Shown here: positions 4,077 to 62,200 of the stretch, one piece after another
Layout of the letters: each line of letters starts with the position of its first letter
Numbering within the stretch: the stretch's first letter is position 1
The notes under the pieces: generated by a model
Database searches by the model: none
The model's input: only the letters and a program-made list of their open reading frames with translations
What the model was told of the DNA's origin: nothing
Assembly: GCA_965112155.1 (NCBI GenBank)
Contig: OZ218098.1
Source of the DNA: Podarcis liolepis
Lineage: Eukaryota
Length of the DNA stretch: 64,000 nt
Reading direction: 5' to 3' (one strand)
Program-made: the position numbers and the translations under genes

Positions 4077-7000
4077 CTAGAAAAATGAATAAGTAGTAAA
4101 CGGAACAATCAGTCTTGAAGAGTCATTGCTAAGGCTTGTTGCAAAATCAGTTTGGATTTCTGTGAAACTGATTCAACAATACCTGAAGGCAACGAGAGGA
4201 AGCCACTGGAGGCACAAAAGATTTAGGGTGCCATTAAGGACAGACAGACCAGAAGATGCTACGTCCTGATTTTAATTTAAGAGTAACCTATTCCTCATCC
4301 TGACAGTCACAAGAGAAAGAAGAATTAGGCACCAGATGCATTAAAAATCTTTACCATCTCCGTAAACTGGTCACCACAGGCCATTCGCACTCGTTCAGGA
4401 GTCAAGGGGCTGTTCAACACAAAGTCTGATGGCAATCCTCTTTCCTTCCTGGCAGCAGCCACTGCATCCCATATTGCAAAAAATACAGAGCTCCCCAAGA
4501 AAAGTGCCGCTTCACCGAGGCCCTGCCAAAAGCAGAGACAAAAGCAGTGAAATCATGTTGAGGCATTAGCAAATATTTCACATCAAGAACCTTTCAGGGA
4601 GCATCTCTGTCCGCACACGAAATGAGTTTTGTTTTCTCATTGTGTGGGAACAAGACCCAGCATCTGACACACTCTTAAGAGCTTGGTGGCATCAGCCTTT
4701 GTGGACTCACTTGGGCCAGCAGGCAGACCTTACATGAGCCAGCACCTTCATGTGGCTGATGTGAGAAGCCATAGGAACCTACTGCATAACACCTCCCTGT
4801 GCTCAGGGCTGGCTCCAAGCTTGAGGGGGCCTTTGCAATGGGGCCACTAGCGGGCTTTCCGATTCAGTATGTGATGAGTGGATATTCCAGTCTCATTCTC
4901 TGTCCTTCCACTTATTTCCCACTAAGCTCCAAGGGTGGTAGGTGGCCCTGCCTTACTGAGAAGGAGGAGGAGCAGTAGTGATGGTAGCAGAAGTAGCAGC
5001 ACTCCTCAAATCAGTACTGGGTGGCTTATCAATGTCCAAGTGTCACAATTGCAATGGTGCCCACCTGTTGCTCATCTGTGGAGAAGGAGACAGCTGTATA
5101 TCTAACAAGGGTCCTGTGGCAGCCTTTCTGAGAATGCTGACTGCAAACTCTGGGCTATTTTAGAAAGGTTTTAACCTATTCTGAGTGGTTGCTTTAAAAA
5201 TATATGTGAAAGCATGAGCTTATATCCACATGTGTGCACATGCAGCTTTTTAAAGACTAACCAAAATGAAAACAAACAATGTGAGGCCACACCTCTCTGC
5301 TAGTAACGCACTGCTGCCATTCAAGAACATATTTTTATTGTGTCCTAGTCGGTTCACAAAGATTGCTCACCATATTCCAAAATGGTGGCAGCCGCAACTG
5401 CAGCCTATCATGGGTGCTGGAGAGCTGAGTGTAGTGGGAAGAGCAAATTGCCCATGCAGCTGGCTGATGTCACAGACTAGGAATCTGTGACTGTTATTAT
5501 TCTGCCCCTCTCATCTGAGCTTGGGCTGCCACTATATAGCTCCCCCTCGTCTGTGTTTATCCTAAGATGCAACATCTGTCCAGTTCCCTGGAACGACGTG
5601 TTTCATTTTACATGCCACAGTTTTTACATCCAAAAGGCCAAAGGTGAAAAGCCCTTTTGAGCGTCAGCCCAATGAGATCAAGATATGGATGGACACAATT
5701 GGCATCACCTGATATTAGTGCTTTCCCAGGGGCTCGTCAACTTAGGAAGGGAGCCCATTTAGGAGAAGGAAAACACTGATCCTAGACCTCAAGATGCCAC
5801 GTGGGATATCTTTGGAAAAAGAAAAAGCTAAGGAGTAAACCCTGCACAAATCCAGAGTGCAGCCCCTAAAACGGTTGGATGTACAGTAAGCCTCTTTCCG
5901 GCAAATCCTGCAGTCAAGCTGGTGCAAAACGTATTGCTCTACTTTCCTGTGTAACACATCAGTGAGGCTGAAAGGGGAGGCTCTTGCCATCTGCATAGCT
6001 CAGGACCTCCATACATACTGCCCAGGGCTGTGCAAGGGGAGGTCATTTTGGTGCTGCTAACACAGTGGTTTGAATTCATCCCTGGAGGTGCACTCCATTG
6101 TCTCTCAAAACAGATGGATGCCAATCAACAAGCAGAGGTGGTTAGCACAGCCAGCAGAGCTACAGATAATAACACTCAAGTGTGTGGTCTGCAAGGGATA
6201 ATTTAGGCCTTATAGTCACAATCCGTCAAGCTGTGTAACTGGCTAATCCCCCATTAGGCTTTTTGGCCTTGTTTTGCTAGAAGTTTGACATAACTTGTGT
6301 TCTGTTTGGCTGCAAGTAAATAACTGTGCTCTGACTGTTTTCGGCTAGTTGGCACAGTTTTTCTAGCTACCACTGCCTCGATGGGTAGTTAAGAGAGAAG
6401 GCTACGCCACTGTAAAAATTGCATTCCTTATTTCCGATTGTTTGATAGCCTGTTCTGCTATCATACCTCCAAAAAGGGCTTTGTTGTTGTTGTTGTTGTT
6501 GTTTAGTCGTGTCCGACTCTTCGTGACCCCATGGACCAGAGCACGCCAGGCACTTCTGTCTTCCACTGCCTCCCGCAGTTTGGTCAAACTCATGCTGGTA
6601 GCTTCAAGAACACTATTCAAGCATCTCATCCTCTGTCGTCCCCTTTTCCTTGTGCCCTCCATCTTTCCCAACATCAGGGTCCTTTCCAGGGAGTCTTCTC
6701 TTCTCATGAGGTGCCCAGAGTATTGGAGCCTCAGCTTCAGGATCTGTCCTTCCAGTGAGCACTCAGGGCTGATTTCCTTCAGAGTGGATAGGTTTGATCT
6801 TTTTGCAGTCCATGGGACTCTCAAGAGTCTTCTCCAGCACCATAATTCAAAAGCATCAATTCTTCGGCGAAGAAGAAGGGCTTGGAATGCCTCAAAACTG
6901 ACTGCTCTTCTCCCGATAGGGGGACATGCTACAGTGAAACAATTGCCTAGCAAGGGTTCCCACTGGAGTATATCATGTATTTTTCTTTTGGCTCTGCTGC

Positions 7001-10000
7001 CTTGTGGTCTGCAATCAATATTCCAATGGGAAGTTGAGGACTTCAGTCTTAGGGGAGACAACTTGCTCAATAATATGTCACAAAACTGAATGAAATACTC
7101 CTGATATTATATCCATGTGGGCATAAACCCAACCGCTGTTAAGCGCATTTAATCACTGTTGATTTCAAGCGCACTTATGCCTGAATGGCTGTGGGATGGA
7201 TTATAGCCGCATGATTAATAATACAGTAACAAGATATTCATAATGAAAACAACTTATTCTCTTGTATCATTTCCATCCCATCCTCCAAGTCTGCAGTTTT
7301 TCCTTCAGTAATATGGGTCACTTAGGTTTAGCAGGAGAAAAGGGGAAGAACTTCACCTTGGATTTCAATCTTCTTACCTTGGATGAGTAGATCGCTGTTG
7401 GGTTTTGGCTAGATGCCAACAAGGAGACACTGATCTGTTCTGGAATGTCACAAACAGCAGGGATTTTATATTGATCTGGGCCCCGTGTGTAGAGGACCCC
7501 CTCTGGGGAATATTTGAGTTCCTCTGTTGTGTAGAGTCCAAGGCCCTGGACAAAGGCACCTTCAATCTGCCAAGAGGAAGGATAGCTTATAGTGAGATTT
7601 CCATATACTTTGTTGTGTTAAATTAATACGAGCTCTCGTTACATTGTCTGAAAGCGATGCTAGCTTTAAAATTATAATTATTTATTATTAAAATTGAACA
7701 AATGAACCATAAAAGCAAGCATAAAAATCTAACATCTGAAGGACAACTGGACACCTTTCCATTAATATTGTAATTAGACTTTCAGAATTCTATGAATAAT
7801 GCTGGCCTTTCACAAATATTTCAATTCTTTGCTCTCCTTCTCTTAAATTTCACCATCTAACAAAGCTGAAATGGCATTTTTGCAAGATGCTACATTTTAA
7901 TTACCCATTTCTATCATAAGAGTTGGAAGGAGGTCCAATCCTGTGCTCAGTGAATTTCTGTATTGTTGGGTTTTGTATCTGTCACTGAACAGGGAGTTGG
8001 ATCTCCCTCCAAATCTTATGATTCTAATTGAAGTGAATTTAGTACCTCATAGCAAAATGAAGAAATTCTCAGGACTTACCTGACCTATATCCATTGCCGG
8101 ATTGATGCTGCATCCAATGTCCATAACAATATCTGTTTTGACATTCTGTTAATGAAAAACAGGTTGTAACTTTGTATTACATTCGGGGGACTGAAGCATG
8201 AGGAGATGAGCCAAATATTATGGCTAGGATATCGAGAATTTGTACCCAGTGTGATATGACCTATTTGTGGCTCATTTTGGGAAATAAGTCCCAATGAATT
8301 TAACAATACTTTATTTGTTATAAGTATGCTTAGGGCTGAAGTCCTTATCTTGTAATACTTTCCCCAGTCTAAAACCATATTAAAGTCAATGATGCTACTT
8401 TCATTTTTAGAAGTAGGTAGAGTGGACATCACTTTAATGGAAAAGTAACAGTAGCCAGCAAAGCTGGTGCATTGTATTGGCTAAGAAAGAGAGCTTTGGC
8501 TAAGAAACCAACAAATACCAGCTTTTGAATCCTCCCAATATACTGATTGAAAATGTATTGTAACTTTTGAATAAAGGTTTCTGGTTTTTTTAAATAAAAT
8601 TTTCCTTCAACTATGAATGTACCGGGCAGCCTTTCAGCCTCAAAGCCAGATTCCCATATACCAAAAAGGAATAATACTGCAGGAATCCTCCAAAATTAGA
8701 GATACAGTGGTACCTCGGGTTACATACGCTTCAGGTTACAGACTCCACTAGCCCAAAAATAGTGCTTCAGGTTAAGAACCTTGCTTCAGGATAAGAACAG
8801 AAATCGGGCTCCGGCGGCGCGGTGGCAGCAGGAGGCCCCCATTAGCTAAAGTGGTGCTTCAGGTTAAGAACAGTTTCAGGTTAAGAACAGACCTCTGGAA
8901 CGAATTAAGTACTTAACCCAAGGTACCACTACACAATATATGCAAAGTGGACTACACTCGTTTATGTGCTATATAAATGCTATGTATTCTTTTTATCTTT
9001 CTGTGGCAATAAACAGTATACCACTTCTATGGGAAAATTCATGTGCAAAATGGAATTCATAAATTGTAAAACTTAAATAAAAAGCTGTCTGGTTCTGCAC
9101 AAGGCTGCCTGCTTTTGCCCAGTCAGCTTTGGAAGAAAACAGCTGGGAAAAGGGCAAAGTGGAGGCTGTTGGCTACTGCAACACAAGTGCCCGGATGAAT
9201 TCACATTCAAAGTTGCCATGCATGTGCCATAGCAGCAGCTCATGGATTACTGAAGTCACACAAGGAAGGAGGAGAGGTTAAACTCAATCCACACAAGAAA
9301 CCACTATGTATCCTGCACCCATTTCCAATCACCGTATTTTTTGCTCTATAAGACTCACTTTTTCCCTCCCAAAAAGTAAGGGGAAATGTGTGTGCGTCTT
9401 ATGGAGCGAATGCAGGCTGTGCAGCTATCCCAGAAGCCAGAACAGCTTTCACTGCGCAGCGATCCCTCTTGCTGTTCTGGCTTCTGAGATTCAGAATATT
9501 TTTTTTCCTTGTTTTCCTCCTCCAAAAACTAGGTGCGTCTTGTGGTCTGGTGCGTCTTATAGAGCGAAAAATACAGTATCCTGCACCCATTTCCAATTAG
9601 CTGTGCTTTGTAGAAACCAGCAGGATTTATTGCTGTCCACTGCAAACAACTGTTTAGACTGAATACGACAAAGAAAACACAAGAGCCTTTCATTAGTTAC
9701 ACAGGAACTTGGCTGTGCTTTTTGCACTAGCTGTAAGTGACACCTGACAGTTTACCTTGTGGTCTCCAGTCAGACAGTCTATTTCAACCTCTGCGCAGGC
9801 GGCTCCAAAAACAAAATATTCAAATGGGTGGCCTTCCCCTTTCTCCCAGTCCATGTTTGCTTCATAACCTCTGCAAGAAGCAACAAAGTATGTTGGAGAG
9901 TAAGGGATGCTTGCAGGCATGGGAACAACAATAAAGGAGACAAGGGGGAAATAGCAATAAAGAGCCTCACAATCACAGTGATGTGCTGGACCCTCAGTTG

Positions 10001-15308: not shown

Positions 15309-18300
15309 GTTACACCTCATAGTTCTGCTTGCAAAAGGTCTTTTTGGGTTCAGTGGCATTCACAAAGACACTCAACAAATGCCATTGACCCAAATTCCCC
15401 CACTTTCAGCAGCTGAATACTGTATGGAATAATTATACTCCCATGGTCATGGAGGGGGTATAGCTGGAGAAATCAGATTAAGGTTTAGCTCCTCCACAAT
15501 GTCTACTGTATATAGACCATACAAAGAAGCCAGAGCCTATTTTATCATGTACATGTATCAGGAACTGATAACTATTTAATTTGCTTGCGTATAATCACAG
15601 CTGTTCTGCATATTAACTAGAGTAACGCTGAAGGTAGGTGAAGAGATGTCAGGACGGGTTGGGTTTTTTGCTCCTCTTTTAATGCTGCAGACAGTTAAGG
15701 GAGTGTTCACCAACTTTCACATCTTGGCACCATCTTCTCTGACTAACCTTATTGCCCCAATGCAGATTAGTGTTGAAGCAGACTTAAATTATGGCTAAAA
15801 GCATGTGAAAGTAATGCGGACCAGAAACAGCCAGGTTTGTCCATCTTTTCATCGAGCATAACTAGCTCATTGTTCCCAATGTGGCTTCCCAACTGCAAAT
15901 AAAAGGCAGTATTGCGTGGCCAGACGAAGACCCCCCCGGCCCCCGGGTGGAATAATGACTCATGACATGTTATGGGATTAAAATTGGCCACAACTTTATT
16001 AAACTTTCAGATGTAGGGAGACCTTGGCATAGGCATTGGGCATTTATCCCTCCCAGTCCCCAGCCGGGGATCTGGGGAACATCAGGGTTGTCCAAACAGT
16101 GTGGGGATTGGGCTGGCTCTGGAGAATGTAAGCAGAGAGCCCACCCCCCATTTCACTGCAAAGCAGGGGAGAGCACTGACAACCTATCAGCGTACGGCCA
16201 GTGACTCCCCCAAAAACAACCCCTTTAATGGGGAACCCTGGGATCACCGCCACAGGGGGGGCATGGGTCACCGCTTCACGCCCCCCCCCAATTTAGGGAA
16301 GATAGACTAAAGGATTCCGCCCAAGGCCTGAAACTGCCAAGGTTGTGACGTTTTTGCTACGGGGAAGGCAAAACCTGCCAATGCAGGGAAATTCCTTCCT
16401 GATCCTTCAACAGCAACCATCAATGACCGTAGCAGCGCCCGCATACCTGTAAAGAAGATGTTAACCTGCAAAATGAAGGCATAAACTGAGGGAGGGCAGG
16501 GGACTGAGGACTCCCAGGTAAGTTCCACCCTCTATTGTGTGTGCAGGGCGGTCCCAACCCTACCTGGTTGACTCCCCTGGCAACACCTCCCCAGCTGGGA
16601 TTGGTTTACTGTCTGAGGTGGGGCGGGAACCTCCAGGTATCCAGCTCGGGGAGGTGAAAGCAGGCCGAATTGCCGGAATCGTGTGGGATCAGGGGGCTGC
16701 ACGCGGCCACGCAAAAAGCGCCCCCCATTTGAAGTGGGGAGCAGTCATTATTAGCCACAGCTAGAGGCAGTAATGCTTCCAGTTCCTGGAAACCACCGGG
16801 GGTTGGGTCCTCAATTAAAACTGGGGTTTGTAGAGACTTCCGGGGTGGCGCCTCCGGTGATGGCGGACTCCCTCTGAACTGGAGGGACTAGCTCCGCACG
16901 AAACGGGTCTTTTCCGCTGCAGCATAGCGGGGACCCTTTTGGAAATCACAGGCGGAGGAAGCCTGTGACCGTGGGACTCGGCGGGCACCCTTAGCGCGCC
17001 CCCAACCCACAAAGGAGCCCATAAACGGGCTCCGAAGTGAAGAGGGGGAAGTGGCGCGGTGCTGTGAAACAAAAGGAACTTGGACTTTTAAAAATTTACC
17101 CTAATTCGGTACTGAAATGGAAAGGGCTAAACAGGAAGTCACCCTTCCGTTCTCTTGTAGCTACAACAAAGCAAAGACAATGCAAACTAGAGCCTTAAAA
17201 ATTTACTTTTAAAGGATCGGCTTTCAGCACTTAAAATCGCGGAACCCCCCTTCGGAAGCAGGAGAAGAAGGGGGTCCCTTTATTGAGTTGTTTAAACCTG
17301 CAGAAATAAAGTTAAAGTACTTTTCCACCGACCTGACCCTGGAGCGGGGTGTCAGACTTGATGATTGAAGCTCATTGACCAGAAATAAATGCTTTGACAG
17401 ATAGTTAAAAGGAGAGAAACATTGTGACTCCATTGTTTCCTTTCGTCTTTTAAAAGAACTAATATGGACAAAACATCTTGAAAAAGAAACTCTGTTGCTG
17501 TTGTTTTCAAGGAAAAGAACAATCAGAAGTTCCCCCCCTTGAGGGGAATGACAAAACTGTAACTAAATTCTGGGAACTTGCAGCTGTCACTGATTACAAC
17601 CGTGGGAAAGGATTTTGTGACCTTGCAGGACAATGCCTTCAGAAGCACTGCTGGGTGCTTTCTGTAAAATAAATGCCCTATTGGATCAATTAAGCCAAAA
17701 GATGGTTTTTATGACTAAGGCTGCCAGAACCTTTGATCAGGTAGTGGAAAAGTATATGGAACCCACTCAGGAACCAAAACAGGAGCGCGCCATGACAGAA
17801 CAACAGAAAGAAGAGGATTTTGTTGAATCTGGGGCGCCAGGGATGGGTCTTTTGGCCCAGCAGGGAAATGAACCTTTGGATTTGATAAATGAACTTGGGA
17901 AAAACCAGATTTGGAAAGACAAAGCTTGGATTGACTTGGAAATGGGGGGTTGGACTGACCCCCCCTATGCAGGGATGTTTGGACTTTCCGAGTCTGGCAA
18001 TGGGCCGCCAGAGGTTTGGAGCTGTTGGGACTTCCAATCTGGGAGGGAATTTGAAACATGTCCTAAAATACCACATGGAGCTTAGTCTGGACTATGAGAA
18101 AGGGGCTGACTTGTTGAAAAGGGTCAAAAACATTACTGAGCTGGCGTTCCCTCGAGTGAAAGGAAAATATGAAGAAGAGCTGCGGAAGGGACATGGAAGA
18201 TATTTGAAGGCCTCGGATGTAAGAGCACCAGGTTTATGTGCCAGAATAATGGGATAAAAAGGACTGACAATCCCGGGACCGGGGGGAGGGGACGCTGGAA

Positions 18301-21300
18301 GAAGATTGGATTGTTTATTATTCTCTTTTTTGTTTTCTATTACTAGAAATGTTTTATGAATGTTGGGAAAATGTTGAAATGAAATTACTTGGCTCTTGTA
18401 AAAAATGTTTTAAGAACTAGGTAAAAAGGTAATGGTTATGAGAAGTTAGTAAAGATAAGATTTAAGTTTTAAGTTTTAAGACTTTTTATAAGATAAGATG
18501 ATAATAGAGTAAGGTAACGTAATGACAGAATATTATGAATTATGAGAAGGATTTGCTGTGACAATTATAAATCAAGATACAAGAGAGGGGAGGAGGAGGT
18601 CATGGAAAGAAGGTAACGAAAATTGATAACTTGAAAATAATGGTTTGTTTTTTCTTTTTTTCTTTTGTTGTTTTTTTTTCTTTTTATAATTTTGTTTTTT
18701 ATCTTTGTAATTTTGAGAAAACTCTTTTTTTCAATAAATATTATTTTTTAAAAAAACAAAAACTGGGGTTTGTAATTACCCTTATCTTGAGATCAGACCA
18801 CTATATTCCATCTGGCATAACTTCACTGAAACTAATAAATAGATGCCAGGAAGTAACATGGACTGCTGCCATCTTTTTAAAACAGAAAATTAAAGATGTC
18901 AATCAGCAGAAACTCTCATTAAAGCAATTTGTTATTCACACACACAAGCAAGAGATAAGCAATTCCTAGTACCTGGATCATTTTGGTGTGGAGCCCTTGC
19001 CCCATTTCTACACCACCGTAAGTCAGAAGCACGGACCCATCGGTATACAAATGAACCAGAGCAGCGGCCTGCATAAAATAAGAACACACAGTTTGGCTCT
19101 GCACTCTGCATGAAACGAGCAGAAATGTTTTCACTTGGGCTGTCTTTATCAATCTAAAAGTGAAGAGCTATATATATATTTTAAAGAGACGCTCTGCAAT
19201 GAAAGGTTAGGATTGCTGCTACAATCTGCTGCACTAGTGTTAGCCCTATTCTTAGGTCAGGGATTGGCAACCTCAGGCCAAGGAGTCAAATGCAAGCCTC
19301 CAGGACTTGCCCTGACTTTTCCCAAGCCACATCCACTCTCCAAACACAAGTCCCTAGCCGTCCATGTTTCACACCCTCCACGAGTGCTTCTCCCTTGATG
19401 GAATATGCACTTGAATACTGATAAGAAGAGTTTGGATTTGGATTTGATATCCCGCTTTATCACTACCCGAAGGAGTCTCAAAGCGGCTAACAATCTCCTT
19501 TCCCTTCCTCCCCCACAACAAACACTCTGTGAGGTGAGTGGGGCTGAGAGACTTCAGAGAAGTGTGACTGGCCCAAGGTCACCCAGCAGCTGCATGTGGA
19601 GGAGCAGGGAATCAAACCCGGTTCACCAGATTACGAGTCCGCTGCTCTTAACCACTACACCACGCTGGCTGTTGCTCGTTTGGAAGATAGAAAAGGGTGT
19701 GTAGAAACTAGCCAATGGTCCAAAGATGAAATTCACACTTGTTGCTCTGTCAGCTTCTGCCTTTGGCCCTCTTCACCCGTGAAGGTTGACAGAAGGGCTA
19801 AAAATTATTTCCCCATCCTTGCATTAAGCAGAGGAAAACAGCTACCCCAGGCAAGCAGATGCTGGGGTGGTAGGGAGAAGTGGTATAGGAGGACAGAGAT
19901 ACACGTAGCCTGGCCTGCACCCCTAAGCCAGTCTGCTGTCCTCATGTGTGGTGGTGGGCATTGCCTGCTCAGAAGTGCTGAAGTGACCTTCCACTGCCAA
20001 ATTTCTGTATGTGGAATTGGAAACGCACTGTCCTTGTGGACAGCAAAATGTCTCGGGGCAGTCTTGAGCACGGTGTTGCTGTTCTGCTGGTGGTACACAG
20101 TGCTAGTAAAACTGCCATGTTGATGGTTCACCAGCAATGCAAGGATGATGATGATGATGATGATAGGAAAGTCAAGGTTGCAGTGGGGGAAGAATGGTGC
20201 TTAGTGGGAATTCCATGCCTGCTTGGGGGTCAGTCGTAACTTGAGAATACACCACTGAAAGCTGCAAAGGAGACGGCATAAATAAAAACCACTCCCATGT
20301 ATTGCCCTCCTACAATCAAAGCGCAGTAAAGGATTACAACTGACACTGCTGCCAACCATGGCACACCTATCAGGAGCATGTCTGCCCTTGTAAGGGAAGC
20401 TAGCTCAGATTTCAAGTTGTGTGGCAAGGGGCATGCAAGTGGGAACTGCAGTGAAAGGGAGCACTTTCCAAAACGAAACAGAAAACAGCCAATAATAATA
20501 ATAAAATAAAAACAAGAAAGGCATGTGACCAATGCTTGTCTTCTTGTACAGTGTCCAGAGAAACTGACCTGACCTAGGGAGCGTAAGCCAAATCCAACAG
20601 GGAACGTCATGGGAATAATGGCAATCCCCTTTTTCTTCCAGTAATTTTCCTTATTGAATTTATTCACAGCTTCTTTCCTGGTGTGATACATAGACTTCTC
20701 CATGCATTCGTCCCAGCATCTGAGGAGGTTCTCTGGCTTGAGCTCTTGTTTATAAGCTGTCTGTCCGGTTTCTTTGTACATATTTATTTCTCTAATCTGG
20801 AAGACAAGTATCTCAACAAACTGCAATATGGTGCCACATTCATAACGAGCTTTGGGAGTTAAGATGCATTTACCCAAAGCCAAACCTTATATAGATTTTT
20901 CTCAGCCTAGAGGTAGAATTGGGCCTATTTATATTTTACACACACATCCACATTTGAACTATTACCAGATCATAAAGTATTATTAATGCTAGCATCAATA
21001 CAAGCAAGTAACAATAATATTCAGGACACCTCAAAAACAGGATTCAGTCACACAAGGGTACTTAATTATATGACCAGGATCAATATATTTGAGAAAGCAA
21101 ACTTTTCAAAGTGGGTTTCATCTAGGTCTTATTAATACAGAAACCAAACAAGCCCATTTCTTATGCTCCTTTACAGCTGAAAGGGTCCCAAAAGTGGGGA
21201 GCAGGGAGTTGATAGCCTGCCCACCACTAGAAAGCAAGAGGGCAATTAAACTATTCATGGTACTGAAACCAATGTTAGATGCCAAGTTCTTATCTCCTAC

Positions 21301-24300: not shown

Positions 24301-27300
24301 GATGTTTTAAAATAGGGCAATATTTAAAGCATTTACATAGCACTTCATAAGGTTCAGGGTGCTTCAGATACATTGAATGCCTTTGGATGATAAGAATGAG
24401 ATATGAAACAGCCTTTTGCCAACCCTTCATTGTTGTTGTTGTTGTTTAGTTGTTTAGTCGTGTCCGACTCTTCGTGACCCCATGGACCAGAGCACGCCAG
24501 ACACTTCTGTCTTCCACTGCCTCCCGAAGTTTGGTCAAACTCATGCTGGTAGCTTCGAGAACACTATCCAACCATCTCGTCCTCTGTCGTCCCCTTCTCC
24601 TTGTGCCCTCCATCTTTCCCAACATCAGGGTCTTTTCCAGGGTGTCTTCTCTTCTCATGAGGTGGCCAAAGTATTGGAGCCTCAGCTTCAGGATCTGTCC
24701 TTCCAGTGAGCACTCAGGGCTGATTTCCTTCAGAATGGAAACCCTTCATAGAAGCCACCTAATAAACCTAGAAGTCTTAGTTATCTTCTTTGCAAACACT
24801 CTTTGAACACTCCTCATCATACCATTTCAAAAAACTGAGACACAATGGCTTGCTGGGAGCTCCTGAATGTGTGAGCTGAATGTAGCAGCAGCAGAGTCAA
24901 TCTCTGCCATGTTTGGATACTTCACACATCTCCAATGTGACTATGCTTGTACATGTGCAGTCCCTTCTCCAGGCAACTGACAAGCATGCCTTTGCAGTTT
25001 CTTGCCTGCATGGGAGAGATTCTATTTGCAGAAGAATGTTGCAAATGAGTGAGGGAACACATGTGGGTAGATACCTTTCCCATAACTGTGTTCCTTGAGT
25101 GCAACGAAGAATGCCAACAAAGTTTGAAGAGGACTGAAGGACCTCTAGTAATGTGAGCCTGTGCCTTTCTACTTTCACAGCTCAGCCTCTGAGGTACCAT
25201 GCTACATGTGTGGCATTCACAATTGATGCAAGTGCATTGTTCTATGTACACATTTATTTGCAAGATGAGAAGCAGGAAAAAATTCTGACACACAGGTTAA
25301 TTCTGCTGCTTACTTTATATTTGCCGATGGTTGGGTGACGGCCTCCGGTGATTAACATGTCAGTGCTTCTGTCTAGAACACAGCGAACTGCATGGCCTGT
25401 CCTGAAAACAAAAAAATAGCTAAGTAGAGAGTGACAAAGAGGGCTGCCCCAACCTACTAGGCAATTCAAACTACTGCCTCGGGTGGCAAAACTCAATGAG
25501 TGCCACTGCAATACTTATGTAATCATCAAACAGATTTCAGGTTTCTGTAGAATGTGGGAGATATCAGAGGAAAGATGCAAGGAAAAGGAGAGAGCTCTTT
25601 AAGTTTAAAACAAGCTGTTCCAACCAGTGGTGGCTGTGAATGGAAACTGAAGTAGGGAGAGAGAGAGAGAGAGAGTTTTTTGCACAGGTGTGAAAGTGTA
25701 ATTTGTGATCTTTGAGAAGCATGTTTTATTTTCTAAGTTTGTAATAAAAGCATTCTATGTAACCAAGCCTAAAACGCCCCTTTGATGCCTACTTTTATGA
25801 TAATGTAGCTTAACATTTTCTTAGGAGCCCCCTGCACATCATATGGCAGACAGACACATGTGATCCATGTTTATTCATCTAGAATAACCAAACCCCTGCT
25901 CCATGTTCATAATAACTGCTACCACATAAACTACTCCCATATACTTGAACTATAGGCAATGGATCAAACGGGAAGGGAGCTATACTATCACCAAACTAGT
26001 TGTGATGTTAAACATGTTGGGCAGAGCCATACCATATACAGTGGTACCTTGGGTTATGAACTTAATTTGTTCCAGAGGTCCATTCTTAACCTGAAACTGT
26101 TCTTAACCTGAGGTACCACTTTAGCTAATGGGGCCCTTGCCGCCGCCCCGCAATTTCTGTTCTTATCCTGAAGCAAAGTTCTTAACCCGAGGTACTATTT
26201 CTGGGTTAGTGGAGTCTGTAACCTGAAGCGTCTATAACCTGAAGCGTCTGTAACCCGAGGTACCACTGTATTTAAAGAACGTTCAACACACATTTAAAGC
26301 ACATGTCTTCCACCAAAGAACCCTGGGAAATGAAGTTTCCCCATCACAGAGCTACAACTCTCAGGGCCCTTAGCAAACTACATCTCCCAGGATTCTTTGG
26401 GGGGGGGGAGCCAAGCACTTTAAAAGCACTTTATGTGCTTTTAATGTATGGTGTGGATCTGCCTGCTGCCATCTGTAGGTCCCTTTTCTTTTTGATAGTA
26501 TCCATTGTGTGTGGAGGTGATTTGGCTTAACCCCTTTCCCTATGGCTTTTTCCACCACCAGCCCAGCTAATATTTACAGATTTGCACCTCCGGGGAAGAA
26601 ACAGCAGCTTCACTCCCTGCCAGCTGCTATTTAAAAGGGTGTAGGGACCCCATGACAGACAATGTGTCTAACATTCCATCTAGTTTTGCTCTAAGAAAAC
26701 CATGTTATTATAGCCTAGAGTGTTCAAGTACTTAACTTTTCAGACTGCTAAGTGTTGTGCTTTTAAGCTACTGTGCTCCTTTGAGGCTGTATTCACTGGA
26801 GTCTTTTGCTGTTTTCACTGTGCTGTTCTTTTTAATTTGGCAACGTTCCTATCATATTGTATGACACTGCATTTTTTAAGAAATTGTAAACTGCCCCAGG
26901 AACTCTATAGTGCTTCTGGTGTGGAATATAAATGCAGCAAATAAATGCTTCAGCAATTCTTTGGATGCTTGTCTTTCCAACTTTGAGCATGTTTCAGCAT
27001 TTTATTCACATGCTACCATCTAAGGAAATAGTTCCCGTACTGATCCCGCGCATACCAAGCGCACACGCACAGAGAATAGCTATTATCATGGCTGAAATCC
27101 AGAGGAGACAAAACCTTTAAATTAAATGAGCTGAATAAGTATGTTATTTTTTTAATAAAATGAAAAACTTAATCAGGGAGCAAGCCCCAGTCCCTTAATG
27201 TGGCTTCCTTCTCAGTAAACACGAACAGGCTTGCAATGTGAAATCCCAACATTAACTATCATTTATGGTGATGGGAATGGTAGCCCAAAACCTCTGGAAG

Positions 27301-56228: not shown

Positions 56229-59200
56229 TTATTATTTGTACCCCGCCCATCTGGCTGGGTTTCCCCAGCCACTCTGGGCGGCTTCCAACAAAGATGAAAA
56301 ATACACTAAAATGTCACATATTAAAAACTTCCCTGAACAGGGCTGCCTTCAGATGTCTTCTGAGGATAGGATTGCACTATTAGACTAGTTTGAGTATGGG
56401 TTGCAGCTTTGTCTCTCTTTGTATGTGTTATTCCTTAAAATCAAACCTAAATTTTAGGTATTATTAGTCTCAACTGTCATGATTATGGAAAGTGTTTCAA
56501 TAAACTCTCACAAAGTAGTTATTCTACTCTCCTAAAATGTTTCTGGGTCACTTTTGGGATTCTTTTTTGTACAACTGTATGTTTCCATAAAATAAATATG
56601 CTTGATAAATGCCAATTACAGAATAAGGTGTCAAGCATACTTTGAAAAATATTTAAATATAACAAAACAAAAAGAAACCATCTGACAAAAACTAACCTGT
56701 TGATTTTGGGTTCTTTGTAGCAAACTGTAGCTCGCCTGCGTCTAACAGGTGATGTGGAATTTTCTTCTAAGTCTTTATTGGGTTTTGGAAGGGAAGGTGC
56801 TTTGATATTTGTCAGTTCTTGAAGAGGCTTACGCCCTGAAATTACAGCTATTATTGAATCATTAATTGCAAAAATATTTGGAACGTTAGTAAACTTGAAA
56901 AAATAATAAAGATATATTTTTGGAGACACAGTAGTGTGGTTGATTGCATGCCAAACTTAAAATGGGAAGACGAGTTCAGATTTTGTTCAACCATGATACT
57001 TGGTGGCTTTGGGACAGTCACCCTCTCTAAAACTAATTTATTTCACAGAATTGTTGTGAGGATAAAATATTGGTGGGCAACATAGCTCTCTCTGGAAGAC
57101 CAACAGGATGAAACTGTAATTAATTAATCAAACACAAGTTAAGCCATGGTATTTGAAATGAACTTGGTGATTTGTAAAAAGTAGATGCTGTAATATTCCC
57201 AGTTTTAGCAACTGAAACATAGCTCAAGTGAGAACTCTTAATGTTATTTCCTCACCTACTGTATCAGGCAATACAACTGGTAGCATAGAAGTACAATGTC
57301 TGATTACATGGAGGGCAAACTTTATATAGAGTGTGAAGGGATGTTGCACATTTGTGAACACGGAGCGACACATACTTGTGAGCTGCAATCAATCACATAA
57401 CTGTTGTGCATGTTCACCATATTTAACCACTGTATCTCCCTTTAATTATTATTATTAACATTTATCAGTCAACTGGATAGCTCAGTTGGTTACAGCATGG
57501 TGCTGATAACACCAAGGTTGCAGGTTCGATCCCTGTATGGGATTAGCTGCATATTCCTGCGTTGCAGGGGGTTGGACAAGATGAACCTCAGGGTCTCTTC
57601 CAACTCTACAATTCTATAATTAATTTTTTGCCACAGCAGCTTAAAACGACTTACACAATATTTTAAGCAAGCCCTGTATACATACATTAAAACCAACACT
57701 TTCTTTTAAAAACCCCAAAAACAAACTCTGTACAGTGGTACCTCGGGTTAAGTACTTAATTCGTTCCAGAGGCCCGTTCTTAACCTGAAGCACCACTTTA
57801 GCTAATGGGGCCTCCTGCTGCCGCCGTGCCGCTGGAGCACAATTTCTCTTCTTATCTTGAAGCAAAGTTCTTAACCTGAAGCACTTTTTCTGGGTGGGTT
57901 AGCAGAGTTTGTAACCTGAAGTGTATGTAACCTGAAGCGTATGTAACCCGAGGTACCACTGTACACTAAAACATTCCAGCCATGAAAAAAAAAAGCTATA
58001 GATGATTAAAAGCCAAAGAGCGAATTAAAAACAAAATATTTTGCCTGGTCGAAATATATGTAAAAATTGTCCCAGGCAAGCTTCCCTAGGGAGAGTGTTC
58101 TACAAGTGGGGAGCCACCACTGAAAAGGCCTGTTCTTGTGTTGCTACCCTCCAGACCTCTCATTTAGGTGGGCATACAAAGAAGGGCCTCAGATGACAGT
58201 TGCAAGGTCTGGGTCAGTTCTTAAGGGGAGAGGTGGTCCTTGAGGTATTAGGGTCCTGATATGCAGAAGACTTTATAGGTCAAAACCAGCACTTTAAATT
58301 AGGCCTGGAAACTAACCCGTATCCAGTGCAATCAGACCAGGATTGGTGTTACATGCTGAGACCGTCTTGCTCCAGTGAGCAACCTGGCCGCTGAATCAGC
58401 TGCAGTTTCCAAATCATCTTCAAAGGCAGCCCCACATATAAAATATTGCAGTAATCTAACCTAGAGGTTACTAGAGCATAGACAACAGAATTTAGGCTAT
58501 CCTTCTCCATATAGGGGTGTAACTGGGCCACCTATCAAAGCTGATGGAAGGCACTCAATGCTACTGAGGCCACTTGAGCTTCAAAGAACAGCAATGGATC
58601 CAGAAGTACCCGCAACTTACATATCCTTCAGAGGAAGTGTAACCCCATAAAGAGCAGTCAGCTTTCTGTTATCAGGTCTAGGGAACCACCCATTAACAAG
58701 TTTATTGTATGGCATAAATGTTCATGGACTATTATAACTCACTTTATCAGATATATGAAGTGGGATAGAAGGCCATGAATATGAGGCAACAATCATTAGA
58801 TTTTTAAATATAGCTCAAAAGTTTCTGCATACCACTGTAGGATACCACTGATGGACATATAAGCATCGCTTCATACCAGAAAAGCAGTTAGTGCTACATG
58901 CGCTTCCAGATACTAACCAGAGCATAGGACATGATTCTTAATCACCCAGAGCACACTACCTGATCCATAATGGCTATGGTCCAGGCCTATTCAATTGCAT
59001 ATATTCTAGTTTCTTCGTACAGGGATGTATATCTGAAGAATTTAAATCAAGTATTATTAAAATCACAATACCCACCCAATTAAATTGGGGAACGGGGGCA
59101 GAAATTGACAGAGTCAGACTAATACCTAGAGTGCCTTTCCTAATATCCAAAGTAAAGCTACACATACCAAAGTCTGATACTGGTCTTTTGCTGCAAGACT

Positions 59201-62200
59201 CTTTACAAATTATGTTCACATTCTCTGTGGAAGCATAGTAATTTTCTTCCTGGTAAATTCTTGAGAATTGCAATGTTTCAGGGTTTTTCAGAACTGGAAT
59301 GTTTTTTTGAATTTTATGGAACTCAGTAGCTATTTCAGTATTGTTAGAAATTACTTTCTCTACGCTCTTACCTTGATCACATGAAGAAACACTATAGGTC
59401 TTCTTGCTTGGGTTTGGTGTAGAATCTACCCTTTCTTCGGATGTTTCAACGCAACATTCAGCCGCTTTCTTTAGGTAACATGAAATTGTAACATGCTGAA
59501 CATTGGAATTTCTTTGAATGTTTTCATTTCCTTCATGGATATTCTCAGCATACACATTTTCATCGTGTAACTTTTGTTTCACAGAAGTTTTTTTCTGAGA
59601 GCTTGGGTATATAATGTATGTCTTCCTACCAGCTTTTGCAAAAATTCTTCTTTTATCACCATGTGAAAACTCTTCATTAATTTGATCTGTTTTAGGAATA
59701 CCTAAAGCATGAGCAGATCTCTCTGTTGTTGTTCCAAAATTGGAAGACACTTCTCTCTTATTAAAGTCACTTTTTATATCAGTCTTTTCATCTTGTATAG
59801 TCTGGCTATTAGAATTGCATACCTTTGATCTAGGCCCTTTCAAATACTGCCCATTTTCCATTTCACTGTAATGTGATTTTTTAATTTTGGAAACAACAGG
59901 ATAGGTCTCATTTATGTCTAAATCCTGTATTGAAACCACACAGCTTTGTACTGGAGGCAAGCTTTCAATAGAATAACCTTCTAATGGTAATTTACCACCA
60001 GGTACGTCAAAATCATGTTCTGCGACCTGGTTTTCTGAATTCTGAGCTGTTTCAAAAATTTTATCTTTCATTTTTTCTTTTTCTAAAAAATGAGTTGTTT
60101 GCCGCAAGTCTACAAGTCTTAGGGGGTGCACCTGTTTGTCATTCTTGTTACAGTTCTTGAAATCTTCTCCAAGTTTATTGGTGTTCTTCAGTTTCATTTG
60201 CTGATCATTTCTCATTTGAAACAATCCTTTTTCTGGTGGTAGAACATTTTTAGATTCAACAATATCTTTAACTTTTCCATTACTAGGAACTTTCTCGTTA
60301 CATTTTTTAGGTTTAATGTTATATTTATCCTCAATCTGTTTTTCTGTACTTTTAGTTTTCACTTTTCTCAAATTTGCTGAAATTTTATCAGTTTTTACTA
60401 TTTTAGCATTCTCAACCTTGGCTTTTGATTTAATTAGGAGTATCTCACCTAGTTCACTAGCAGTCAATTCCATGTCAGCATCATATACAGTTTCTTCTGG
60501 TTTTTTACCATTTATAGAACATAGTTTATCAGTGTGATCAGGCTCCTTTCTAGGTTGAGATGATTTAGTGCATGAAACATCTTTTGGGGCCATCTGACCA
60601 TTAGTGTGGACTTTGTCAGTGTCACAATGCAATATGCTATTTTGCTCTGTTTTACTCTCAAAATTGTTTATAGTAGACTGAATATTTGATGTGCAGGACA
60701 GTCCTCGTTTCTTCCGTTCAGTCACATATTTATGAATTAGAAAAGGACTACTGTGTGCTTTTGATTGTCTTTCATATTTTTCTACAGAAGATGCATTATC
60801 CAGATCCAGCTTAAAGGTCCTACTAGACATCTGATCCATACATGATGGATTTTCTGCAAACAAAGCAAAACTAGGTTCATTTACATTGCATAAACAGGTA
60901 AAGTTTGTTTTTTCCATTTGGAATATGCTTTATTCTAATCTTCAAAAACAATTTCAGCTTGCCAGATGGAACATTCTCCCCTTCCCTACACCTGTGGTTT
61001 TCTGATGGATCTCCAGACACCCAAGAGCCATTTGGGGAGAAGCATGTAGGGGGCACGCAAGGAGAAGGGAAAGCAGGGCTTCAGCTGATAGGGTTCGTCA
61101 GGGGAATCCCACCCATTATTATTAACTATTTATATATCAACAACATGCATCTGTTTAACTGAAACGGTTAACAGTGTTTTTATAAATATCAGATGGGAGA
61201 CCTGAACAAACCTAGTGATACTGGAGCTATTTTATTCAAATTGGTCTGTAACCTACTATAGTGTTTTAAATAGCTTACATAAAAGTATCTTATGTGCCTA
61301 ATTGTTTAAAATATAATGAAAAAACATTAGGAGTAACATTATGCATTTCTGTGTTGATGTGTCCCAACATAAATGTTCATTTATTTTTTAAGACTCGAAC
61401 GAGACATGAATCATATATCTAGCTCTATTGTCCCTGATTTTATAAACATAGATTGCCAGCATGAAACACCCCCCCACCCACCGCAATCTGAATCAAGACA
61501 CAGGCATGGAGTGGGAAGTAAGGTGCTTTAGTCCTTTATCCCCTTCTGTGGACCTGATGCAATGTGCACTGGGGTGAAATTCCTCCAGTGGGTGTATTTT
61601 TCATTTACAAATTGCATGCACCAGAGATCCAATATGGACAGGAACTACAATGAAGGGAAAGGGCTGAAGACATCTACCCACCATGCCGGGGTCACAATCC
61701 ATACCTCTCCTGCTGACAATTTATATTTTAAAAGTCCTGTATTGAGACTCTTGCTTTCTGCAACATTTGTTGGGGAGAAAGGACCCTAGAAAATGAAGTG
61801 AATGCAATAAAATATGCTGTATACCTTTTGTAAATTTATTTGCGATAAATACTGTTTCTGTTTTATTTGTTTCACTTGATTTTGATGTATTTTTTTCAGA
61901 CACAAATAACTCTGCATTGATTTGATCTGCTGCAGCTTCCTTTGATGTAACAAGATCATCAGGTACACAGACTGATATGTTACTTTGCTGATTTCCATTA
62001 TGTTCTTCAGTCTGAGTGCTCACATGTTGCCTGATAGTTCTGAAAGAACAATTTATTATGAAAGAGAGTTAATAAAATGGGATTCACTTCAGCATTTAAC
62101 TCATAAGTAAATTTCACTTTGCTCAGTGGGACACTACCAGATAACAATGCATGGATTTGTAATCTAATAATAATCACATTCTGTGTTATAAAAAACCCAA

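Follow-up and report, generated by a model that had tools for sequence, protein, structure and literature searches.

Within a 64,000-nucleotide stretch of Podarcis liolepis DNA (assembly GCA_965112155.1, contig OZ218098.1; the whole 64 kb is called the window below), a mobile element occupies the + strand, some 200 nt into an intron of a host gene that runs on the - strand. From its motifs we take this gene to belong to the aldehyde/xanthine-oxidase family, which agrees with a preliminary description, made from the sequence alone, of an insert antisense within an intron of an AOX-type gene. The window holds this one member of the element family only. On the sequence comparisons set out below, the element is very probably of the HAL1 type, that is, a LINE-1 (L1) derivative formed by internal deletion, with an open reading frame (ORF) derived from the ORF1 of one L1 family of the same genome, its progenitor family. 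Our reading, to which we give a probability of about 0.6, is that of a half-L1 with a remodelled ORF1 protein (ORF1p), whose helix would dock on LINE-1 ORF1p particles and whose putative R-x-P-G degron would confine this help to the element's own RNA. The parts of the insert, which include pieces of the L1 untranslated regions (UTRs), the ORF1p C-terminal domain (CTD) and the flanking target-site duplications (TSDs), are these:

16817..16832, + strand: left TSD, with TT directly before it
16833..18758, + strand: the insert as a whole, a 1,926-bp copy of lineage A (full-length sister copies are about 2.05 kb)
16835..17199, + strand: CpG-rich head at the 5' end, with homology to the progenitor L1 5' UTR (its first ~480 nt)
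17064..17068, + strand: 142-nt deletion relative to sister copies, site approximate
17633..18233, + strand: ORF1p-derived coding region, split here by a frameshift, ~200 aa in intact copies
17642..17758, + strand: N-terminal heptad helix, residues 4-42, aligning weakly to the start of the ORF1p coiled coil
17959..17965, + strand: C run carrying the frameshift of the window copy
18081..18191, + strand: degenerate remnant of the ORF1p CTD (ORF1p ~aa 262-322), bounds approximate
18192..18233, + strand: conserved 14-residue tail ending in R-x-P-G; the stop position, 18234-18236, is TTA here
18258..18704, + strand: homologue of the L1 3' end (final ~40 codons of ORF2 plus 3' UTR)
18733..18758, + strand: AATAAA (18733-18738) and short A-tail (18750-18758)
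18759..18774, + strand: right TSD

The preliminary description had listed an exact 16-bp TSD at a TT/AAAA site, a CpG-rich 5' end, an AATAAA with A-tail, a 150-aa ORF (17633-18085) and an overlapping 122-aa ORF in another frame. All of these are present: the two TSD copies (16817-16832 and 18759-18774) are identical, the duplication comes after a TT|AAAA site, the first 300 nt contain 20 CpG at 57% GC, the polyadenylation signal stands at 18733 before a tail that is short and impure, and the second ORF occupies 17889-18257. The 5' end reads GAGACTTCCGG...GATGGCGG, and the head, which matches the progenitor L1 strongly at 16835-17070 and weakly at 17079-17199, is likely to be an internal promoter. 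A purine-rich GGA(A/G)GTC motif lies near 18587-18601, inside the region homologous to the L1 3' end. Where the earlier text spoke of a complete 1.9-kb element it has to be amended, as the window copy is 142 nt short in the promoter region of its 5' UTR and full length is about 2.05 kb; splicing was rejected as the origin of the gap, the 3' end of the missing piece not being AG. The insert had also been suggested as an antisense promoter within the AOX intron, a role for which this copy would have to do without those 142 nt. The conjecture in the earlier text that a single frame of about 200 aa had been broken by a frameshift was right, for the frame is intact at 197-201 aa in 16 of 30 sister copies selected by DNA similarity. 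The window copy has seven C at 17959-17965 against six in intact copies, and TTA in place of their stop codon. Among 29 DNA-selected copies in which this run could be read, 8 have it expanded (six by one, one by four and one by five nucleotides), in more than one subfamily, which may reflect a slippage hotspot or an assembly error.

Copies of the element are numerous. A DNA search of the animal's own genome gave 3,661 candidates, 40 of which were scored and the top 30 loci examined, most of them about 2.05 kb long, while searches with three related proteins as queries (the best 150 of 2,906, 2,375 and 2,957 matches, which were not deduplicated and are not copy numbers) uncovered three lineages, A, B and C. 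Among the 110 loci examined, 80 of which were chosen by protein search and so favour intact frames, 95 carry an ORF of at least 195 aa (range 197-221 aa), and all 95 end in glycine. A flanking repeat was found at 84 of the 110 loci, some of these spurious; in the 45 copies that passed a strict full-length filter, TSDs measure 12-20 bp, the insertion site shows a loose Y|AAAA preference, and nearest-neighbour identity reaches 97%. The family has thus amplified independently with the hallmarks of L1 (TSD, poly(A), T|A-rich nick site), and the multicopy status that had been proposed is borne out by many dispersed copies of ~2.05 kb in nested subfamilies with TSDs of their own. One TSD is shared among L063, L066, L067 and L068 and another between L021 and L025, and these copies are segmental duplicates, not separate insertions. 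Relatives in protein databases are 27-84% identical, some annotated as hypothetical proteins of Podarcis lilfordi and the rest unnamed; the element family explains these supposed P. lilfordi genes. No longer homologs appeared among 7,997 candidates, which is weak evidence. ETS-like and YY1-like motifs such as those at the 5' end occur at host promoters too, which might suggest a processed pseudogene of a host gene. Such a pseudogene, or a one-off deleted L1, is nevertheless refuted for practical purposes by the dispersed, nested copies with their own TSDs, by colinear L1 homology in three regions (below) and by the lack of any host-protein homolog in the protein databases searched.

The ancestry of the element emerged from a second L1 family. 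The first 20 intact L1s sampled from the same genome have no ORF1 that matches the element protein, and what they share with the element is limited to the starting GACTTCCGG and one motif in the 3' UTR; the last ~80 residues of their ORF2 profile weakly match the element at its ORF stop (5.7 bits, against -1.9 for a reversed control). A much closer relative of the progenitor was reached via a flanking fragment, namely a family represented here by 18 loci (L131-L148), with a length of 6.2 kb, an ORF1 of 352 aa and an ORF2 of 1246 aa. A DNA profile built from the 45 full-length copies and run against these loci matches the 5' head (first ~480 nt) at E ~1e-51 to 1e-65 in 12 of 18, the DNA of the ORF1 CTD at a best E of 4e-7, and the ORF2 tail with the 3' UTR at E ~1e-14 to 1e-19 in 15 of 18. 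The element protein profile scores 18-26 bits (E 2e-8 to 6e-6) on 12/12 ORF1s of this family, colinearly over ~aa 79-218 and 262-320 of ORF1p, while no more than 1.6 bits is reached by the other 17 ORF1s or by the 29 reversed controls listed within the top 30 rows. Three colinear blocks are therefore homologous to a single L1 family, as an internal deletion would leave them, and the single ORF is homologous to ORF1p. The protein, which the preliminary description could assign to no known family, is an eroded ORF1p, and the idea that it was unrelated to ORF1p was dropped with this match. A SINE origin was also discarded: there is no credible Rfam match for a tRNA-, 5S- or 7SL-type head, and the head is that of an L1 5' UTR. 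ORF2 profiles run on six-frame translations of the 45 copies match only the C-terminal ~60-90 aa of ORF2, so that neither endonuclease nor reverse transcriptase is encoded, and the earlier proposal of a non-autonomous, protein-coding, L1-mobilised, HAL1-like family holds. The 5' heads of A, B and C are ~70% identical to one another and 58-61% identical to L1, and cluster apart from the sampled L1s in an unrooted tree; because they are nearer each other than L1, a single old origin of the three lineages fits.

Many intact L1s of several families exist in this genome (L031-L050, L131-L148). Within the progenitor family, the intact L1 of L138 has a near-full element copy (positions 1-1722) inserted in antisense into its 5' UTR region, and L131, also intact, has a second copy of the 5' UTR head in place of its 3' UTR (~7401-7756 on the L1 strand), possibly a chimera or a tandem insertion.

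Mammalian HAL1 elements, such as rat RNHAL1 and guinea-pig HAL1, are presented in excerpts of three reports (PMC5753468, PMC2241872, PMC3627910) as L1 derivatives with a 5' UTR, one ORF derived from ORF1, no endonuclease or reverse transcriptase, an L1 3' end, poly(A) and TSDs, and with coding capacity retained over long periods, in all of which they resemble the present element. It differs in its squamate host and its other L1 progenitor, and above all in its protein. As far as these excerpts go, HAL1 encodes ORF1p, whereas the element protein is acidic, measures ~200 aa against the 352 aa of progenitor ORF1, ends in a new tail, and has lost the basic N-terminus, 34-62 of 83 positions of the RNA recognition motif (RRM) and all but 3-6 of 32 invariant residues. 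The progenitor L1s share with the element the 5' head (58-61% identity), the ORF1 coil with traces of the CTD, the ORF2 tail and the 3' UTR, yet they are autonomous and have a basic ORF1p (isoelectric point 9.3) with predicted RRM and CTD. HeT-A and Ag-Sponge, which an excerpt of PMC5786205 groups with HAL1 as bipartite non-autonomous LINEs retaining ORF1, likewise combine internal deletion with one ORF1-like protein, for which multimerisation with the protein of the autonomous partner is proposed there as it is here, although they belong to the Jockey and CR1 clades; the excerpt mentions neither loss of RNA-binding domains nor a degron-like tail. The literature searched, which did not extend to Repbase, Dfam or the original HAL1 paper, contained no reptile HAL1, and an unnoticed repeat-library entry for the family is possible. 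With this family, HAL1-type elements appear to reach squamates. Families of this kind can escape notice, as the Pfam L1 ORF1 models fit neither them nor the L1 ORF1s first tested from this genome.

By definition, then, the element is HAL1-type, yet its protein does not pass as a canonical ORF1p, which would have RRM and CTD folds, a basic RNA-binding surface and a basic N-terminus. The lineage B protein starts in alignment with the second methionine of ORF1p (MAAGG), whence the basic N-terminal ~50 residues are gone. In 11 representatives, under an approximate alignment, 21-49 of the 83 RRM positions align, the remainder being lost, and 3-6 of 32 listed ORF1p-invariant residues are kept; the median isoelectric point of 95 element proteins is 5.13. 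What survives is the coiled coil, in shortened form. The heptad-like N-terminus noted at the outset corresponds to a helix, residues 4-42, which is the only confident part of the AlphaFold model (predicted local distance difference test score 82-95) and whose 3-4 hydrophobic spacing is retained across the 95 proteins and the lineages; the heptad pattern with L16/L17 is kept even between lineages just ~28% identical. The low-confidence model contains no strands and found no Foldseek match, while the progenitor ORF1 model, run as a control, matched the human L1ORF1p fold (E 2e-6). A PDB sequence search returned weak coiled-coil matches only (best E 0.18), and the ESM Atlas no usable match. Pfam gave nothing significant for four element proteins or 54 alignment members, a null result that is uninformative because ten local L1 ORF1s also miss the L1 ORF1 models; genome searches with two of these, PF02994 and PF17490, likewise found nothing, and their controls were silent too.

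The other conserved end is the tail. ORF1 homology stops near E-D-L-x-K-G, and the last 14 codons and the stop fall where homology to the ORF2 tail begins, in another frame; this homology is clear just downstream of the stop and faint within the tail, and the new 14 residues are probably encoded by ORF2 DNA read in another frame. R-x-x-G ends 95/95 intact proteins and R-x-P-G-stop 93/95, and a 2A/StopGo reading was rejected, the spacing being unlike DxExNPG-P. By motif alone the ending matches the C-degrons of CRL2 (R-x-x-G or -PG at a free C-terminus): in excerpts of the degron literature, APPBP2 binds proteins with R-x-x-G at their very C-terminus (PMC10614623), the degrons given for the KLHDC family include PG (PMC9098119), and glycine is, by report, the residue least often found at normal C-termini (both sources). 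The pattern leads us to suggest, tentatively, that the tail may function as a degron.

This tail is the most constrained part of the protein. Over 91 rows, with L059, L066, L067 and L068 left out as duplicates, the synonymous rate per codon is the same in the tail as in the rest of the ORF (1.79 vs 1.79), and amino-acid changes are less than half as frequent (1.86 vs 4.13; p=0.008). R(-4), P(-2) and G(-1) are unchanged on all internal branches, and position -3 changes most. For the whole ORF, the ratio of non-synonymous to synonymous rates (dN/dS) lies at 0.38-0.76 within lineages in 13/13 pairs, which are not independent, and 42 UTR pseudo-frames average ~0.97 (mean by hand). The N-terminal helix stands at 0.06-0.48 in lineages B and C. 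By region, purifying selection is clear for the tail, moderate within lineages and near neutral between them. The same contrast could be taken to mean that the protein is close to vestigial, the open frame mainly serving translation and stability of the RNA and the degron clearing a useless or toxic product. A dN/dS of 0.5-1.0 over most of the middle, many in-frame indels, the RRM deletion, the disordered model and the placing of the strongest constraint on the tail would all suit it; we consider it distinctly unlikely, as the heptad pattern and L16/L17 persist across lineages ~28% identical and the helix is constrained in B and C.

In a non-autonomous element, an ORF should remain under selection only where it benefits the RNA that carries it. 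Direct packaging of RNA by the protein is unlikely because the RRM and the basic surface are lost. In earlier work, ORF2p acts in trans to mobilise mRNAs that encode ORF1 alone, provided that their ORF1p is functional (PMC11260458), multimerisation with the ORF1p of the autonomous partner has already been proposed for such elements (PMC5786205), and N-terminal heptads have been proposed to link ORF1p trimers (PMC5940361). In the half-L1 model, transcription would start from the L1-type 5' head and intact L1s would supply ORF2p in trans; the nascent N-terminal helix would dock on L1 ORF1p assemblies, bringing its own RNA to the LINE-1 copying enzyme, and ORF2p would then act on the L1-type 3' end of that RNA. 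Rapid turnover through the putative degron tail would keep the protein from serving any RNA but the one from which it was translated. Unstable cis-acting transposases, whose rapid turnover limits their action, offer a parallel. We think that the protein probably acts in cis, and put docking on L1 ORF1p at slightly under an even chance; when the element helix was modelled in a complex together with two segments of the ORF1p coil, the score was 0.01, which is evidence neither way.

How the tail would enforce action in cis may be seen differently. With the same HAL1-type ancestry, it might be a ribosome-arrest or slow-termination peptide by which the helix, while still nascent, stays attached to its own mRNA, and this mRNA would then travel to L1 particles with it; an analogy is XBP1u-like tethering. 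Amino-acid constraint over ~15 residues before a fixed stop, with an invariant Pro-Gly, would suit such a peptide, and it would account for cis action without an RRM. The R-x-x-G/PG pattern, however, directly fits published C-degrons, and among the papers listed by a literature search there was no such arrest peptide of a retrotransposon, so that we regard it as unlikely. Alternatively, with two conserved ends, an acidic, fast-evolving linker between them and a tail fitting CRL2 receptor motifs, the protein could be an adaptor or saboteur that captures L1 ORF1p, or else a host restriction factor, with its helix and recruits CRL2 with its tail to degrade the bound target, freeing ORF2p for the parasite. 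Such action in trans would benefit all copies, making selection on the ORF harder to explain, and we consider this reading very unlikely. Put more generally, ORF1p might have been turned from an RNA chaperone into a two-ended cis adaptor, with a coiled-coil hook and a new frame-shift-born C-terminal peptide (degron or ribosome-arrest), a formulation that we hold with rather less than even confidence. If true, it would be a route of ORF2p capture distinct from Alu and classical HAL1, kept up in several lineages of the element in lacertid lizards.

Several observations weigh against the half-L1 model with its docking helix and degron. Selection on most of the ORF is weak: between lineages whole-ORF dN/dS is 0.72-0.99 in four pairs, the range of the UTR control (0.47-1.95) overlaps the ORF values, the lineage A helix stands at 1.1-1.3 in 4/5 pairs, and the ratio of non-synonymous to synonymous changes does not differ between internal and terminal branches (1.82 vs 1.67, p=0.36), the terminal branches being biased through the choice of best matches. 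Within the tail, the conserved stretch extends ~15 residues upstream, unlike CRL2 C-degrons, reaching G(-15) and L(-10), which a degron leaves unexplained. Three tail codons hardly vary in their third position (GCC 90/95, TCG 81/95, CCA 90/95), so that RNA-level constraint may contribute to tail conservation. Low ORF2 similarity inside the 14 codons makes the junction approximate, and an hhalign comparison of element protein and ORF1p (E 0.002, probability 13.8%) gives modest support for homology. RNA reads of a related organism show no 5' start pile-up of the kind that would mark an element-initiated transcript.

Those reads cover the family sequence at low depth and in both orientations, and one single-cell run is biased towards the sense strand. 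They could have arisen by priming at the A-tail of copies that lie in introns. Reads from autonomous L1 ORF2 ends also align to the ORF2-tail remnant of the element, with loose ends.

The family amounts to a natural deletion series in which the heptad helix was kept, a constrained tail gained and the RNA-binding parts lost, and it touches two open questions, namely how non-autonomous RNAs overcome the cis preference of L1 and what the minimal role of ORF1p is. As intact copies and intact partner L1s occur in the same genome, every part is open to testing by standard assays.

Elsewhere in the window, an open frame of 651 aa at 58974-60929 (- strand) probably marks a second host gene, of which it would be a large exon. 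Repeat-like fragments at 6402-7106 (- strand) and 24450-24806 (+ strand) are similar to RTE/BovB-type 3' ends or to Sauria SINEs.

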